From positions 1,568,001-1,632,000 of the forward strand of contig CM000150.2 of assembly GCA_000004695.1 (NCBI GenBank): a stretch of DNA of 64,000 bases, in the 5' to 3' direction. Below, piece after piece: positions 5,140-34,124 of this stretch. Under the pieces are notes generated by a model that ran no database searches, was not told the origin of the DNA, and saw only the letters and a list, made by a program, of their open reading frames with translations. This DNA comes from Dictyostelium discoideum. Lineage: Eukaryota. A program made the translations under genes and the position numbers. Position 1 is the first letter of the stretch. Every line of letters starts with the position of its first letter.

Positions 5140-6563
5140 CGAAAAAGAATAAACAAATATCTCTTTTTCTGTTTTTTTTTTTTTTTTTTTAATCACAAAC
5201 CTTTATATATACTCACAACGTTGTTAAAGTTAGAAACGAAAAACTCAAGCAAAAGCTCGTCTCACCTCTCGACTCCACTTGTTGGATTAGACTGCCTGAA
5301 GAAGAGTCTTTTTAAAAAGAAAGTCCTAGTTAGTTAGTCCTTAAGATTTGGATTATCCTTCTGCTGTGAAATTATTTGAAGGATATCTTGCTTATTATAA
5401 TTAACTTTCAAATTCCAACCTTTTTTTTTTTTTTACTGGATTAAATCAAACCCCAATCCAAGAAAAAAAAAAAAAAAAAAAAAATAATAATTATTTTTAA
5501 AAAAAAAGGAGGGAAAAGAAATCATCATCATTTCTTTGATCCATTACATCTTTAATTTTAAATATATATATATTTTTTTTTCAAAAATATATTAATCATC
5601 ACATTCAGTCTCAATTGATTGTGTTGTATTATCATTTTCAATTTTAATTATCAAATTAAAAATTGTATCAATTTAAACAAAAATACACACACACAATTCA
5701 TTGACTTTTTTTGTGTTTGATTAAATATCAATTTGGCCACTCCCCACCCCCTCAATTAGCCAATTCAAATTTATTCAGTTTTACTCATTAATTAATTGTG
5801 TGTAGTAGCTGCTTATAATTTTTGGGTATAATTTACACTTATACACTTAATTTACAACAATGCTATTTATGGCATTCAAATAATTAACTCTGTAACCCTT
5901 TTTTTTTTTTTTTTACTATTTATTTATAATTATTATTATTATCATTTTTTTTTTTTCATTTCCATTTTACACTTTTTTTTTTCTTCTCAAATTTTTTTTT
6001 TTTTTTTCTTCTATTTATAATTAATATAATTAAACATTTATTATATTAATTTTTTCTTTTTTTTTTTTTTTTATACAACGGATAGATTTCCCACCTCCTT
6101 TTTTTCATTTTTATAAATTCATTCACACATTCTAATTCACACACCTTTACATCTCACACACTAAATTCACACATTCACCCCCACCACCATTATATTCATA
6201 GACATATTTTGTTTTGTTTTTTTTTTTTTTTCTTTTTTCATTTAAATCACAATTGTTTTTTCGTAAAATATTTATAATTTACTCACATCACCCACACAGT
6301 TTTTGTATTATTTACAAATATTTCATTATTTTTTGTTTTTAATTACACATTTTGTTTTTTTTTTGTTTTTGTTTTTTTTTTTTTTTTAATTTATTTTAAA
6401 ATCAATTATATACCCTTTTAAATATATTTATTTATTTTTTATCAATTTATTTGCAATTGTATTGCGCCTATTTATTATTTTTTTTAAATCCATTTTTTTT
6501 TATTATTTTTTTTTTTTTTTTTTTTAAATTTTTATTCATACCAAATTAGTATTTTAAATCAAA

Positions 6564-16254: not shown

Positions 16255-18243
<1,989 letters not shown>

Positions 18244-19054: not shown

Positions 19055-19695
19055 ATGATTTAAACTTGGATTCATTTAAATATTTATTTTTTAATAGTAA
19101 ACAATTTAAATCAATTAAAATCAATTTCCTTTTATTTAATGAAGTTAATGTAAGTAGAAAAACAAAAACAGGTATATTGGAGGGTTTATATAAATCATTA
19201 ATTGATTTAAATGATGGTGATGGTAATTGTTTAATTGAAAATTTGGAACTAAATTCATTTTGTTATGAAAATGAATTTAAGAATTATTTTGAAAATTTAT
19301 TAAAAATTATTGGATCAAATTTAAAGAGATTAGTAATAAACAATTGCCCAACAAAAGAAATGATTGAAACTATTGTTAATGAATGTAATCAATATAAATT
19401 GGAAGAGTTAATAATACCATCGATGTTTGAATCATTGGATGATACTGTTGGTACAATAGAATTATTAAAACAAAGTGTACTTTCCAAATCTTTAAAATCT
19501 TTCTCAACTTCAATGCTTTCACAAGAAGAACTTCATCCATACGATTTCGATCATCAAGTTTATCAATTATTTAAAGAATTTTTAATTTCGATGTCTGGAA
19601 ATTTAAAACGTTTATCAATTGCATTATTAAATGGACTTGATAAAAAAGGTGGTGATGGTGGTAGATTTAAAGTTAATAATAATACTAGTAATAAC

Positions 19696-19774
<79 letters not shown>

Positions 19775-20451
19775 GTGGTAGTGGTGGTGATAGTACTAAA
19801 TTATTTGAATTAATAAAATATATTTTACTTGATAGTTCAATAGAATCAATAGAAGGTGATTTTATTTTTTCAAATTATTTTTTACCTTTAAAAGAGATAA
19901 CAATAAAAAAGGATTTAAAAATTTTAGGTGTCAATAGTAATGATAATAATGAAGAATTGATTAATCAGATATCAACATCAGAATTTAATAAAAATGAACC
20001 AGTTAAAATTTATATTGGATTTCCATCAATCTCAACATTGTTTTTACAATTTTTAAAATGTGAATCAATTTTAATCGATATTTTTCAACATAACAATTTA
20101 AATATTAATCAATTAATTGACTCAATTAAAAGGAATTGTTATTTTAAATTTGTAGAGATTAATTTCGCTGTATTTTCAAATTTAAAGAATCCAATATCAC
20201 CATTACTTTTAAATCAGTCCATTGAAATCTTAGATTCAAAGAGTAATAATATCAATCATTTAATATTATCATTACATTCAGTTAAAGATGTTCAATCAAT
20301 TTTAAAGAAATTTAATGATTTAAAATTACAAAATATTAATTCCATTTTAATGTGGTGTGAATCAACATTTATTAAATATGAAAATAAGAAATCTATTAAT
20401 AGAGATTTAAAATTTTATTTTGAAAATAAATTTAAATTAATAAATAATTAA
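19055..20451 (+). CDS. hypothetical protein, probable exon 2 (Leu/Ile/Asn-rich, poly-N insert)
   Basis: Acceptor ATAAAG at 19053-19054. Open frame upstream of the listed TTG start to the acceptor. No recognisable domain. Confidence 0.4.
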
Positions 20452-22744: not shown

Positions 22745-23284
22745 ATGTTAATTAATAAAGATAAATTCAACGAAGAATATTGGATTAAAAAATTAGATTT
22801 AGAACCTCATGTTGAAGGAGGAAGATTTAAAGAAGTATTGAGAAGTGTTGAAATTGATAATCAAGGTATGGAAATATGTAATTTTACATCAATTTATTAT
22901 TTATTAAATGGAGAGTCAAAATCACATTTCCACAGACTCGCAAATTCAGATGAAGTTTGGTATTATCATTTTGGTGGAACATTAACAATACATTGTATTT
23001 ACCCAAATGGAACTTATGAAAAGGTACTACTAGGTCCGAATGAAGGTGAGATTTTACAATTCAATGTTACCAAAAATACAATCTTTAGTGCATCATATGA
23101 TAATGAAAATAATAATCAATCATCAAATTATAATTATTGTTTAGTTGGTTGTATGGTTTGTCCAGGTTTTCAATATAGTAATTTTGAATTTTTAAAAAAA
23201 TCAGATCTATTAAATTTATACCCACAACATTCAAAATTAATTAAAACATTCGCATTTGATACTTTACCAGAAATGCCAATGTAG
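22745..23284 (+). CDS. DUF985 / cupin_5 family protein
   Basis: LEPHVEGGRFKEVLRS near the N-terminus is the signature of the DUF985 cupin family. Single exon. Confidence 0.7.
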   Translation: MLINKDKFNEEYWIKKLDLEPHVEGGRFKEVLRSVEIDNQGMEICNFTSIYYLLNGESKSHFHRLANSDEVWYYHFGGTLTIHCIYPNGTYEKVLLGPNEGEILQFNVTKNTIFSASYDNENNNQSSNYNYCLVGCMVCPGFQYSNFEFLKKSDLLNLYPQHSKLIKTFAFDTLPEMPM

Positions 23285-23384
23285 GGGTGGGGAAGAGGGA
23301 TAGGGAGAGGGGGATCAATGTAATTAATAAATATGTATCTTTTTTTATTACACATTAATTATTTATTTATTTATTTATTTATTA

Positions 23385-25040
23385 TTAATAACCAATTGAA
23401 AAACCTGAAATTATATGAGCTTGTTTTAAACCACCAGTTGAAGCAGTCATACCAATGAAACAAGATTTATTTTCATGTAAATTTAATAATTTTTGGATAT
23501 TTGCTTTTATTTTATATAAAACTTGATATTTATCTAACCAAACATCAATTGTACTATCACCATCATCACCATTTGAAGTTGAATATTTAATAAAACATTC
23601 ATGTTCAATACCATCATTCATTGGTTTATTATTTTTTGGATTACCATAACCTAAAGAGAATCTATGATGAGAAGAATTTGGTTCTAATGATCTAGTATGA
23701 ATTGAAATATGATTACCATCTGGGTCTTTACAATGATCTTTTGTTGGATAAGTATCAAATTCTATTGCAATTGAATTTCTAATACCTTGATAACCTAAAC
23801 CACAACCACCAATACCAAGTGAATTGATTGAATCATTTTGAATTACAAATGCCATACCATCAGCACCATTAGTTTTAATTAAAAATTTAAATTTACAAAT
23901 GAAACCACCATTTGAAATGATATCAATTCTTTCCTTTATCCAAAATCCACCAACTCTATCATTTTCATCAGGTGTTAAACAAATACCATTCTTTGTAATA
24001 TCACAATTACCAACCAATTTCAATGATTCTCTTGCTTTTGAAATTGAATCTAAAGAATAAATTGGTTTTAAAATTATTGGTATTTCACTTTGTTGTTGTT
24101 GTTGTTGTTGCTGTTGTTGATTATTATTACCAGATTCACCTCTATTATTTCTCCATTCTGATGAACCAGAAATTCTACCAGTTAAATCACTACTATAAGT
24201 TCTTTGATGATAGGATTGTTTTTCATTATCTTCTAAGAATTCTCTATTTAAAATTGAACGTAATTCATCAAATGGTAATGTTGAACGAATTTGATGATTT
24301 AAATGATTTAAATAATTGGTTAGATCAGATTCACTAATTAAATATCGATTGAGATGAGGTAACTTTATTGAGTATCTAGAGGTGACATCGTAGATACCAT
24401 TGAATTCGAATGCAAATACGTAGGACAATTGTTTACCCCAACCACCTTCATAAGTTAGTGGACTGTCATAGGTTGCTTCACAACTATCGACATGTATCCA
24501 TCGACCATCAATGTAAACTTCATTCCAAACATGGTCGGTGAAATCCAAGATGTATCTAGTTGTAAAACCCAATGCAATAGAAAACAGAGTGAATGCATTC
24601 GCCCATTCACCACATCTTCCACATTTAGTTGATAGTAGTTTCTCGACAGAGTTGTATCTTGGGAATCTTGTTACGTGATTACTTGCACATCGGTATACCT
24701 CAACTATTGATACTTGATGTGACTGTTCTTCAAATGTTGGTCTATCACTACCAACTGAACTAGTCGATGGTGTACCACATTTAATATCTGAACATTCAGG
24801 TGAATTTGTCCATGTGAAATATTCATTCTTAAACCAATCCAATAACATTAACATCTTTCTCTTTAAATCTTTCTCTTTCTTTATCTCCAACGGTACTTGA
24901 TCTAATGCCATCTGTTGTAATCTATCAGAGTTATAGCTAATCATATTTCTATACATTCCTTCAATTTTATTCTTTAATCCATTTTCAATTTTAATTGGTA
25001 ATTTAAATGATTTTAAATTTGATAATAAAATTTTTTGATT
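23385..25040 (-). CDS. peptide:N-glycanase (PNGase) exon 2: Zn-binding Cys cluster, transglutaminase-like core and C-terminal legume (L-type) lectin-like domain
   Basis: PNGase core CGRCGEWANAFTLFSIALGFTTRYILDFTDHVWNEVYIDGRWIHVDSCE. C-terminal ADGMAFVIQN, AIEFDTY, DPDGNHISIH, VWLDKYQVLYK and FIGMTASTGG..QAHIISGF match the legume-lectin fold signature. Confidence 0.85.
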   Translation of the reverse strand, partial: NQKILLSNLKSFKLPIKIENGLKNKIEGMYRNMISYNSDRLQQMALDQVPLEIKKEKDLKRKMLMLLDWFKNEYFTWTNSPECSDIKCGTPSTSSVGSDRPTFEEQSHQVSIVEVYRCASNHVTRFPRYNSVEKLLSTKCGRCGEWANAFTLFSIALGFTTRYILDFTDHVWNEVYIDGRWIHVDSCEATYDSPLTYEGGWGKQLSYVFAFEFNGIYDVTSRYSIKLPHLNRYLISESDLTNYLNHLNHQIRSTLPFDELRSILNREFLEDNEKQSYHQRTYSSDLTGRISGSSEWRNNRGESGNNNQQQQQQQQQQSEIPIILKPIYSLDSISKARESLKLVGNCDITKNGICLTPDENDRVGGFWIKERIDIISNGGFICKFKFLIKTNGADGMAFVIQNDSINSLGIGGCGLGYQGIRNSIAIEFDTYPTKDHCKDPDGNHISIHTRSLEPNSSHHRFSLGYGNPKNNKPMNDGIEHECFIKYSTSNGDDGDSTIDVWLDKYQVLYKIKANIQKLLNLHENKSCFIGMTASTGGLKQAHIISGFSIGY

Positions 25041-25141
25041 CTAAATTTTTTTTTTTTTTTTTTTTTTTTATATTATTAGAGAAATTTGATATATTATACA
25101 ATAATATATAAAGTTTTATTATTATTTTTATTTTTATTTAC

Positions 25142-25342
25142 ATTTAAAACAATAATTTTTTCAGTTGGCGAAGGATCTCTTAATTTTGAATTTGATAAAT
25201 AATAAAATCTTTGAAATGTTGGATCAACATCTGTAACTGAAAAAACTAATATTTGAAAATCTTCATATGTGCATTCATTTTCAACTTCTACTAAATATTC
25301 TTTATCATTATATATTAAATTTATAGTTTTAGATTGATTCAT
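25142..25342 (-). CDS. PNGase exon 1 (ATG 25342): small beta-grasp / ubiquitin-like-looking N-terminal module
   Basis: Donor GTAAAT at 25141-25136 after ...IIVLN. Acceptor ATTTAG at 25042-25041. Frame runs open into exon 2 (NQKILLSNLKSFKLPIKIENGLKNKIEGMYRNM...). Confidence 0.6.
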
Positions 25343-25659
25343 TCTTGAAAAAAAAAAAAAAATTAAATATATTAAAATTTTTTTTTTTTAATATAACACT
25401 ATAAAAACTCAAAAAAAAAAAAATTAAAAAAAAAAAAAAAAAAATTAAATTAAATTGAATTAAATTAATTTTATCTGGACTTATTATTTAGGTATGATTA
25501 TCTCATATTCAAATAAAAATAAAAATAAAAATAAAAATAAAAATCATATTTGGTAAAGATAGATTATTTATTGACACAAAATAATGTAATATCACACAGT
25601 CAGTAGGTAGGGGTGTGGGGAATATTCAATTATAATAATAATAATAATAATATAATGTT

Positions 25660-25919
25660 TTAATTACAACCACATGAACCAGAATAATAACCATAGCTAT
25701 AACTATAACTGTAAGTTGATCCTGATGCAGTTGTATATGAACCTGCATTAGAATCAATGTTAGTATAATCAGAAGGTAATCTTTTTCTACCATTACCACC
25801 ATTACTACCACATGAACCACATGCAATTGAATTAGAACCCATTGATAAACTTGATCCACCACCATTTGCAACACTTGATTTGCTTGATTTCATTGGGTTT
25901 GAAATTGAAATTAATGATG
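25660..25919 (-). CDS. hssA/B-like (hssA/2C/7E family) small Gly/Ser/Tyr/Cys-rich protein, copy A exon 2
   Basis: [27 protein letters not shown]...SCGCN. Acceptor TTTTTAG at 25921-25920. Confidence 0.7.
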
Positions 25920-26006
25920 CTAAAAACAATTTATAATAATTGTTAAAATTAGTTTTTTTTTTTTTTTTTTTTTTTTTTTATTTTAAATATGTATTTTAAA
26001 ATTTAC

Positions 26007-31583: not shown

Positions 31584-32147
31584 TTAGATTTTATCACCCA
31601 AAATAAAAATAATTAAAACTAAAAAACCAAAAATTGCAAAAAAGTTTGGAATATTACTTGTTGAATTATTTTTTTGAGGTTCATTTGTTTTTGGAGGTTT
31701 TGTAGTTTGATTTGGTTCATTTGAATTTAACGATGATGAAGATAAGGATGATGAAGATGTTGTATTTGGGGAAGGTGATGGATTTGAAGAATTTGATGGT
31801 GATGGAGTTTCTTTAAAGATACATTTAACAGAATATGGACCAACTAAAGCAGCATTATCAATTGAACAATTGAATAAATTAATTGTATAATTATTTGTTA
31901 AACATTGTTTATCATCAGTTTCAATATATGATGTAAAATTATAATTATTAACATTATCTTTTGAAGAAGTAATTTTAAAAGAATTTGAACAACCATTATT
32001 ACAAACATCTAATGAAACTTCTAATTGTTTTCCTTTACATGATCCAACTGTTGAATTTACATAAAAATTAATAACACTATCAAGTGGTAATGATTGAATT
32101 AAATTAATAATTGAAATTAATAAAAATAATAAAATTAAATTTTTCAT
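31584..32147 (-). CDS. small secreted, Cys-containing, Ser/Thr/Pro-rich, probably GPI-anchored surface protein (ponticulin-like architecture)
   Basis: N-terminal signal peptide MKNLILLFLLISIINLIQS. Six Cys in the mature part. S/T/P/N stalk. Hydrophobic C-terminus FFAIFGFLVLIIFIL typical of a GPI-attachment signal. Confidence 0.55.
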   Translation of the reverse strand: MKNLILLFLLISIINLIQSLPLDSVINFYVNSTVGSCKGKQLEVSLDVCNNGCSNSFKITSSKDNVNNYNFTSYIETDDKQCLTNNYTINLFNCSIDNAALVGPYSVKCIFKETPSPSNSSNPSPSPNTTSSSSLSSSSLNSNEPNQTTKPPKTNEPQKNNSTSNIPNFFAIFGFLVLIIFILGDKI

Positions 32148-32718: not shown

Positions 32719-32787
32719 GGATAATATTAGTAAAAAATTTATAATTAAATAAAAAAAAAATAAAATAAAAATAAAGAAAATTCATAC

Positions 32788-34124
32788 CTTTGATATTTTT
32801 CTTCTTTTGTATCTATATCATCATAAAAATTGAAAGGATCAGTGTGAATTTCAACACCTAAAACTTGATGAAACTTTGTATAATTTAAGGAATCTAAAAC
32901 ATGAGTATTCCAAAAATTTTCTAAAAATGGTGGTGGATACAATGATGATGTTCTAAATATCCAACGAATTTTACCACTATATTGATCGAAATATTTAGTT
33001 GGAGTATCTTCTAAAATCTTTAAAATAAAAAATCTAACATATTCTTTTGCAGGTGAAAGTTGTAATAAATTTAATTTTAATCTATTTACTACTGGGTAAA
33101 AATTAAAATTATTCATTATATTTGATTCAAAATCATTAATATTTGATTTAATAATTGTTCTAAATTTTTCAATTTCACTACTATCATCATCACCATCTTG
33201 ATCATCATAATCATCATTATAATAATGTGATGAAATCTTTCTTTTCTTATTTCCCTTTTCAACTTGTACTTGATCCTCTTCTTCTTCTTCCTTTTCTTCT
33301 TCTTCTTCTTCTTCTTCATTATTTTTATAGTCACCACCATCTTTCTCTTGTTCCTCTTCTTTTTCTTTCTTTTCATCTTCTTGATCTTTTGAGGTTTTAA
33401 TAGTTAACCGTTTATTATATAATTTTGAATTTTCAATTGAAGATTGTAGTTGTGGTTGTGGTGGTTGTGGTGGTTGTGGTGGTTGTGGTGGTTGTGGTGG
33501 TTGTGGTTGTGGTTGTGGTGGTGGTGGTGGTGATGGTATTTCTTTTAATGCAGTATAAAAGGAACTAAAATAAACAAAACCATTTGAGAATTGATTTGGA
33601 TTGTTTTTTATAATTGCACCGATTTGAGCGAAAATATCAGTGAGTGATTTAATATATAATAGACCACTATGTGATGATATATACTCTTGAATATCATTAT
33701 AGTTGAAATAATATTTAAGCATTTCTTTATTTACTTGTTTTTTCTCTTGTAATGTATACTTAAATTTCTCTTGTAAATAATCTTGAATCTTAATTAAATT
33801 TAAAAGTGAAAATTTTATAATTTCTTGATATGATGATTTTTTATTTGGTATTTCAATATCATCATTATTATTATTATCATTATTTGTTGTTTTTTCTTCT
33901 TGACAAAGATAACATATACAAGGTATTGTTTTTAAATTTGATTTTGATTGTTTAATTAAATTGATATGGTTACTTTTTATATTGTCTTTAGCTTTTATTT
34001 TAAGCTCTCTAGAGACTTTGCGTATTTCATCAAATGATAATCCATCAAATATCCTTGCATTATAGGTGAACAATATCTTTTCGCTTGATTTAACCTTAAA
34101 TTTATGAAATGAAACTTCACTCAT
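32788..34124 (-). CDS. hypothetical protein with (PQ/PPQ)n tract and poly-E/K acidic region, exon 1
   Basis: ORF from ATG 34124. Donor GTATGA at 32787-32782, phase 2. The ORF-track tail RYEFSLFLFYFFFI is intron read-through. Confidence 0.5.

Follow-up and report, generated by a model that had tools for sequence, protein, structure and literature searches.

A Dictyostelium discoideum cytosolic peptide:N-glycanase with a diverged ubiquitin-like N-terminus and a C-terminal L-type lectin domain

We analyzed a 64,000-nucleotide (nt) stretch of Dictyostelium discoideum DNA (assembly GCA_000004695.1, contig CM000150.2, positions 1,568,001 to 1,632,000 of the forward strand; hereafter the window, in whose coordinates all positions are given). 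Positions 23385-25342 of its minus strand hold the complete coding region of the cytosolic peptide:N-glycanase (PNGase) DDB_G0268168 (UniProt Q55FC8), with two exons that encode 618 amino acids (aa), stop codon included. Exon 1 (25142-25342, ATG at 25342) provides 67 codons, residues 1-67, and thus most of a ubiquitin-like (UBL) domain. It is followed by a 101 nt, AT-rich intron (25041-25141, GTAAAT...TTTAG) with a poly-A/T tract ahead of the acceptor, and by exon 2 (25040-23388), which ends at a TAA stop (23387-23385). Every in-frame GT...AG pair was enumerated for this model; alternative pairs were rejected, given that only donor 25141 with acceptor 25041 combined a GTAAAT-type donor with the deposited protein. 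The spliced product is identical to the deposited AX4 protein (P0001 in our set; 100% identity, 100% coverage), and identity to other Dictyostelium orthologs ranges from 96% (D. cf. discoideum) through 91% (D. citrinum) and 84% (D. firmibasis) to 62% (D. purpureum). The locus encodes the one cytosolic PNGase of D. discoideum, a single-copy gene and the ortholog of Png1/NGLY1.

The three-part architecture, a UBL head followed by the catalytic core and a lectin tail, is already known from a 2012 report (Gosain et al., 2012, BMC Biochem 13:9, PMC3502110), which named the 618-aa protein Q55FC8 DdPNGase. Two primers from that report match the window without mismatch, at 23387-23419 (plus strand) and 24609-24638 (minus strand), so that the gene in the window is the published one. 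Gosain et al. gave the core with its Cys210/His237/Asp252 triad, pointed out the degenerate CXXC motifs and missing cysteines, and described at the C-terminus a "beta-lectin legume" domain of 223 aa, intended "for binding to glycan moiety". They noted that residues 1-117 weakly resemble the UBQ domain found in a fungal ubiquitin hydrolase, and considered an N-terminal UBQ domain probable. The same combination of core and lectin was reported for the Naegleria gruberi PNGase. Denatured ovalbumin was deglycosylated by lysates of overexpressing cells and not by lysates of knockout cells, expression was maximal at aggregation as seen with intron-spanning reverse transcription PCR (RT-PCR) primers, and the Ddpngase knockout aggregated poorly (Gosain et al., 2012). 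Lectin families are likewise already listed among the precomputed Pfam domains of P0001. Literature searches (DdPNGase; cytoplasmic PNGase with L-type lectin; Naegleria PNGase; 7ELV) found no work on the lectin domain after the 2012 report. What the present analysis adds is fold-level support for both accessory domains, the assignment of the lectin to Pfam family PF18483, the change of a canonical binding-site Asn to Ser or Thr and a wider phyletic spread.

A priori, exon 1 could be part of another gene further upstream, or a false fusion in the gene model could have added the lectin tail, and a mechanical list of open reading frames (ORFs) does carry exon 1 as an ORF of its own (25094-25342). 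We regard either possibility as extremely improbable. The splice model yields the deposited 618-aa protein, the catalytic core and the lectin are encoded within a single unbroken exon, more than 10 Amoebozoa, known from independent genomes and transcriptomes, show UBL, core and lectin in the same collinear order, and core followed by lectin recurs in more than 40 proteins. Because UBL and core are collinear in 11 amoebozoan orthologs, and because the published RT-PCR spanned the intron (Gosain et al., 2012), exon 1 is not part of another gene. The join between the exons had been proposed in a sequence-only reading of this DNA, whose coordinates for the gene proved exact and whose quoted motifs all lie where it had placed them.

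The PNGase core spans residues ~95-352 (24186-24959) and comprises a transglutaminase-like fold and a zinc-binding subdomain. In a PDB search, residues 129-339 aligned to mouse PNGase (2f4m, E = 9.9e-52) and yeast Png1 (1x3w, 4e-45), and Pfam Transglut_core matched above its cut-off (2e-15). Alignment to the mouse and yeast triads placed the catalytic residues at Cys210 (in GRCGEW, 24612-24614), His237 (in DHVW, 24531-24533) and Asp252 (in HVD, 24486-24488), so that the core claimed in the sequence-only reading is confirmed. The zinc motifs are degenerate and correspond to C150-x4-C155 (24777-24794) and C185-x3-H189 (24675-24689). Both CxxC pairs are kept in the Physarum and Naegleria enzymes. 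The second motif reads C-x3(-5)-H in all dictyostelids examined, the fourth Cys being replaced by a nearby His, and a Cys3His zinc site in the core of Dictyostelia is plausible. This candidate His ligand is, as far as could be seen, unmentioned in the 2012 report.

The C-terminal domain, residues ~395-618 (23388-24059), is an L-type (legume-type) lectin. Three Pfam lectin families matched above their cut-offs: Lectin_L-type_dom (PF18483; 1.2e-27, 97.6 bits against a cut-off of 78.3), Lectin_legB (PF00139; 3.7e-16, 59.8 against 26.3) and Lectin_leg-like (PF03388; 5.5e-6, 26.4 against 24). For structure prediction, AlphaFold (AF2) was given residues 385-618 and the aligned lectin domains of 28 PNGase fusions (alignment A2). 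The resulting model was a legume-lectin beta-sandwich and had a mean predicted local distance difference test (pLDDT) score of 93.4 and a predicted template modeling (pTM) score of 0.92. The best Foldseek match of this model was the legume-lectin domain of Methanocaldococcus jannaschii (M. jannaschii; 7elv, 1e-15), followed in the PDB by pea lectin, VIP36, ERGIC-53 and the SraP lectin module; template modeling (TM) scores against 7elv, pea lectin and VIP36 were 0.70-0.78, with E values from 1e-15 to 1e-11. The A2 profile itself recovered 7elv (1.1e-34) and pea lectin (7e-17). All of the lectin motifs that had drawn attention to this region are present, namely ADGMAFVIQ (459-467), AIEFDTY (492-498), DPDGNHISIH (506-515), VWLDKY (567-572) and FIGMTASTGG..QAHIISGFS (595-615). 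The presence of the domain was thus correctly called, while the span first proposed for it, 380-552, was wrong, as the domain reaches the C-terminus.

When the lectin was used alone in a profile search, the closest relatives outside PNGases were many short, mostly bacterial proteins with 33-38% identity, together with one stand-alone Acytostelium lectin paralog. The free bacterial relatives bear PEP-CTERM, OmpA or dockerin modules. Since the closest free relatives are mostly bacterial, we place the PNGase lectin, on similarity, in the "bacterial-type" PF18483 subfamily of L-type lectins; it groups neither with the plant legume lectins nor with ERGIC-53/VIP36.

Residue-level alignment to pea lectin located the canonical binding site. 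E119, D121, F123, D129, H136 and A80-D81 of pea lectin correspond to E494, D496, Y498, D506, H511 and A460-D461, with Ala460-Asp461 (23859-23864) at the cis-peptide sugar ligand position, the stretch Glu494...His511 at 23709-23762 and a further set of canonical-site residues, Thr602-Gly-Gly, at 23430-23438. Across the 28 fused lectins, which represent three eukaryotic supergroup-level lineages (Amoebozoa, Heterolobosea and Fungi), the metal ligands E494, D496, Y498, D506 and H511 and the A460-D461 pair are invariant or nearly so, as are the A-D-G of the cis-peptide loop, the Gly-rich loop, P507, N510 and T602-G-G. The canonical binding face thus appears, from this conservation, to be under selection across PNGase-fused lectins.

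One canonical residue is different. Thr500 (23742-23744) occupies the position of the Asn that, in legume lectins, coordinates Ca2+ and forms a hydrogen bond to the sugar (pea N125, concanavalin A N14), and among the PNGase-fused lectins retrieved this position is Ser in 27 of 40, Thr in 10 and Asn in three; of the free, mostly bacterial, relatives retrieved, 54 of 71 keep Asn. This substitution across the fused clade, and the fact that literature searches turned up no published carbohydrate-binding measurement for the domain, would fit a lectin fold that no longer reads glycans and has become a protein-protein or structural module after loss of canonical sugar binding. We consider such a loss unlikely. 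The remaining metal and sugar positions are invariant or nearly so from Amoebozoa to Heterolobosea and Fungi, surface loops conserved to that degree would be surprising if they bound no ligand, and the conserved Asp two residues on (D502) could make up for the lost Asn. The lectin also occupies exactly the position that PAW has in animal PNGases, and PAW is a proven mannose binder.

The N-terminal region, residues ~1-75 (25017-25342, intron included), contains a diverged ubiquitin-like (beta-grasp) domain, as had been suggested for exon 1. An alignment of the D. discoideum N-terminus with those of 11 amoebozoan orthologs (A1, 12 sequences) gave a profile that matched the UBLs of UBLCP1 (1.5e-11) and USP14 (8.6e-8), as well as Dsk2 and ubiquitin itself. 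Individually, 10 of the 12 orthologous sequences matched the Pfam ubiquitin family (PF00240) at E ≤ 1, the best at 4.9e-10, and the Acytostelium and Physarum N-termini exceeded the Pfam cut-off. The AF2 model shows a strand-strand-helix...strand layout at moderate confidence (pLDDT 72.9). In a Foldseek search with this model, the 50 top PDB matches listed were nearly all ubiquitin, UBL or UBX domains; three had E ≤ 1e-3 (best 6e-4), and TM scores reached 0.67 among the matches listed. We conclude that the N-terminus is a UBL with strong sequence divergence in the D. discoideum group, where, for example, a terminal GxKIxxxG has become NQKILLSN.

An alternative reading of this segment is that an ancestral UBL is decaying here and that D. 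discoideum and the species closest to it have lost receptor binding. A relic would account for the lack of a Pfam ubiquitin match from the D. discoideum sequence alone, the identity of just 18-26% to orthologs outside group 4 and the moderate confidence of the model, and the same lineage has also lost a Cys-rich insert that lies between UBL and core in other Amoebozoa. However, identity among the aligned Dictyostelium species remains 78-85%, the secondary-structure pattern and T37, P41, Q44 and L49 are invariant across all 12 aligned sequences, and a beta-grasp is still predicted. We rate decay to a relic as rather unlikely.

Core and lectin are joined by a conserved post-core motif of the pattern GRISGSxEWRxxRGE, GRISGSSEWRNNRGESG (residues 355-371, 24129-24179), and a low-complexity Asn3-Gln10 linker (residues 372-384, 24090-24128) that differs in length and composition among close Dictyostelium orthologs. 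The post-core motif is found alike in lectin-bearing, PAW-bearing animal and plant PNGases. It also explains a weak Pfam PAW match (18.7 bits, below the cut-off of 31.4), which covers profile positions 1-24 only and coincides with this 24-residue linker motif. A cryptic PAW remnant was considered on the basis of that match and rejected, as the match is confined to a motif common to lectin-bearing and plant PNGases and an hhalign comparison of the A2 lectin profile with the PAW profile detected no relationship (probability 0.13%). The lectin is thus not homologous to PAW, in agreement with the earlier proposal. No PUB domain matched in Pfam at E ≤ 10, either with the full protein or with residues 1-117; the crinoid control (P0105) gave PUB at 3.3e-12.

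The core-lectin PNGase is, from the homologs retrieved, not specific to Dictyostelium. Within Amoebozoa, core and L-type lectin occur together in all Dictyostelia sampled and in Physarum, Planoprotostelium and Pelomyxa, usually accompanied by the UBL and the Cys-rich insert, which is absent from D. discoideum. In Heterolobosea (Naegleria, Willaertia and Acrasis), the combination comes with a C-terminal PUL domain and without UBL, and in many Mucoromycota and chytrids it also comes without UBL. Other combinations were PUB-core-PAW in animals and UBL-core-PAW-PUB in two unplaced protist transcriptome proteins. An Asparagus PNGase (P0087) has an N-terminal sequence that looks UBL-like by eye, with no Pfam ubiquitin match at E ≤ 0.01.

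Two of the additional modules deserve description. The Cys-rich insert, ~100 aa between UBL and core, was observed in six proteins (P0009, P0010, P0011, P0012, P0018 and P0026; residues ~120-235 in P0010) with the pattern W..ECSRIY...QP.F....C..C..TC......F.C.C......CLF. It matched no Pfam family at E ≤ 0.01 and looks like an undescribed zinc-finger-like module. It is absent from window positions 24960-25040; its loss is shared by D. discoideum, the species close to it and Polysphondylium violaceum. The PUL domain (PF08324, 4.8e-22 in N. gruberi) follows the lectin in P0015, P0017, P0019, P0022, P0027 and P0033, which are the heterolobosean PNGases and two others. PUL is a p97/Cdc48-binding module, and in lectin-PUL PNGases it would be a third link to the degradation machinery, besides PUB and Rad23.

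The PNGase-fused lectins have derived motifs in common, comprising Ser or Thr at the Asn position, a following xD, DPxGNHIS, PNSAHH and TGGLxQxH, and from these a single origin of the fused module can be argued. Searches with the core alone (phmmer) gave flat scores of ~190-215 bits outside Dictyostelia, with lectin-bearing and lectin-free proteins interleaved, and thus could not tell one origin from several. The literature searched held no phylogenetic analysis of the lectin-PNGase and no measurement of the glycan specificity or metal dependence of its lectin. We tentatively raise, as a possibility somewhat short of likely, that the lectin-PNGase is an old architecture of single origin, as opposed to repeated capture from bacteria, spanning Amoebozoa, Heterolobosea and early-diverging Fungi, derived from a PF18483 lectin and marked by a clade-specific change of Asn to Ser or Thr. 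If so, the L-type lectin could be an early eukaryotic glycan reader of PNGase whose place PAW later took in animals and related lineages, and the lectin might differ from classical legume lectins in glycan specificity or metal dependence.

Collectively, we consider it probable that in this Png1/NGLY1-type PNGase the lectin serves as glycan reader and the UBL as tether. The enzyme would remove N-glycans from misfolded glycoproteins retrotranslocated from the endoplasmic reticulum. The lectin may bind the N-glycan of the substrate, probably of high-mannose type, raising affinity or selectivity, a role equivalent to that of the unrelated PAW in animal PNGases; it would then be a convergent glycan reader. 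The UBL could dock the enzyme on a receptor for UBLs, for which the proteasome is the most likely site, and may replace the PUB-p97 link of animals, the PUL-p97 link or the Rad23 link of yeast, standing in for PUB or Rad23 binding as the sequence-only reading had supposed. We propose proteasome docking because the closest solved relatives of this UBL are those of UBLCP1 and USP14, which are known to bind the proteasome. We also count as support that adaptor modules swap between lineages, as seen in the combinations lectin with PUL, PUB with PAW, and UBL with PAW and PUB. Several points weigh against this assignment of roles. The canonical lectin Asn is Thr500 here and mostly Ser or Thr in the fused set, and the searches retrieved no published sugar-binding measurement for the domain. 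The D. discoideum N-terminus matches no Pfam ubiquitin family by itself, its UBL is strongly diverged, with QRFYYL in place of QKILGL, and was modeled with a pLDDT of only ~73. The CxxC pairs of the zinc site are degenerate (C-x4-C and C-x3-H), and the published activity assay was run on lysates, not on purified enzyme (Gosain et al., 2012). The missing lectin Asn and the degeneracy of the UBL are the main uncertainties.

The gene lies among several other ORFs. Downstream, a 179-aa single-exon ORF with a Cupin_5 (DUF985) domain (22745-23284, plus strand; Pfam 8.3e-40) is convergent with the PNGase gene, the two stop codons being ~100 nt apart. Directly upstream and on the same strand is an 89-aa Ser/Gly/Cys-rich ORF with a PF05710 'Coiled' match (25660-25929, minus strand; 3.1e-17). 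Further away, a large ORF at 16255-18243 (plus strand) has TPR repeats (TPR_17, 4.9e-18), and the large ORFs at 19066-20451 (plus), 31584-32147 (minus) and 32745-34124 (minus) gave no Pfam match at E ≤ 0.001. G-rich islands in otherwise very AT-rich intergenic DNA flank the PNGase gene at 23283-23315 and 25606-25622 (another is at 5742-5750): TAGGGGTGGGGAAGAGGGATAGGGAGAGGGGGA lies ~70-100 nt downstream of the stop codon and TAGGGGTGTGGGGAA lies ~265-280 nt upstream of the ATG. The pattern GGGGTGKGG occurs three times in the window, compared with 0.04 expected. These islands resemble the G/T-rich 'G-box' elements in post-aggregative promoters of Dictyostelium and may be candidates for such sites, which would fit the published peak of expression at aggregation.

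The raw-sequence reading of this locus was correct, yet it rediscovers a published and database-annotated protein and by itself opens no new question. The residual value is comparative, in that eukaryotic PNGases keep the core and post-core motif and exchange two kinds of accessory module. The glycan-reading module can be PAW, an L-type lectin or, in plants and alveolates, discoidin-like domains, and the link to the degradation machinery can be PUB, PUL, UBL or Rad23 binding. Deficiency of NGLY1 causes disease in humans, and what PAW contributes is still under debate. No biochemical characterisation of the lectin version of PNGase is known to us. An amoeba that is easy to work with and carries another, well-understood lectin fold at the PAW position could be a useful natural experiment, though the opportunity is modest.

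Compared with known PNGases, the D. discoideum protein has in common with mouse and human NGLY1 (PUB-core-PAW) a homologous core (~1e-51 for mouse), the post-core GRxSGSxxWRxxRGE motif and a beta-sandwich module C-terminal to the core, whereas UBL and L-type lectin are found in place of PUB and PAW. Yeast Png1 consists of the core only, which is homologous to the D. discoideum core (4e-45). The PNGases of N. gruberi, other heteroloboseans, mucoromycetes and chytrids have the same core-linker-lectin order, and full-length alignments to them cover 83-90% of the query. Among lectins, the PF18483 members (7elv, the Staphylococcus aureus SraP module and bacterial proteins) have the motifs GADGxAFVIQN, AVEFDT, DPxGNHIS and GFTAxTG in common with the PNGase lectin; these free relatives are extracellular or surface proteins that mostly keep the canonical Asn, whereas the PNGase lectin is cytosolic, fused to an enzyme and carries Ser or Thr instead. 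ERGIC-53 and VIP36 (PF03388) have the same fold (Foldseek 5e-12 to 1e-11) and are much weaker matches in sequence, the PNGase lectin scoring 5.5e-6 with PF03388 compared to 1.2e-27 with PF18483. They are lumenal membrane proteins, in contrast to the cytosolic enzyme module described here, and they bind high-mannose N-glycans, the expected substrates of a cytosolic PNGase.

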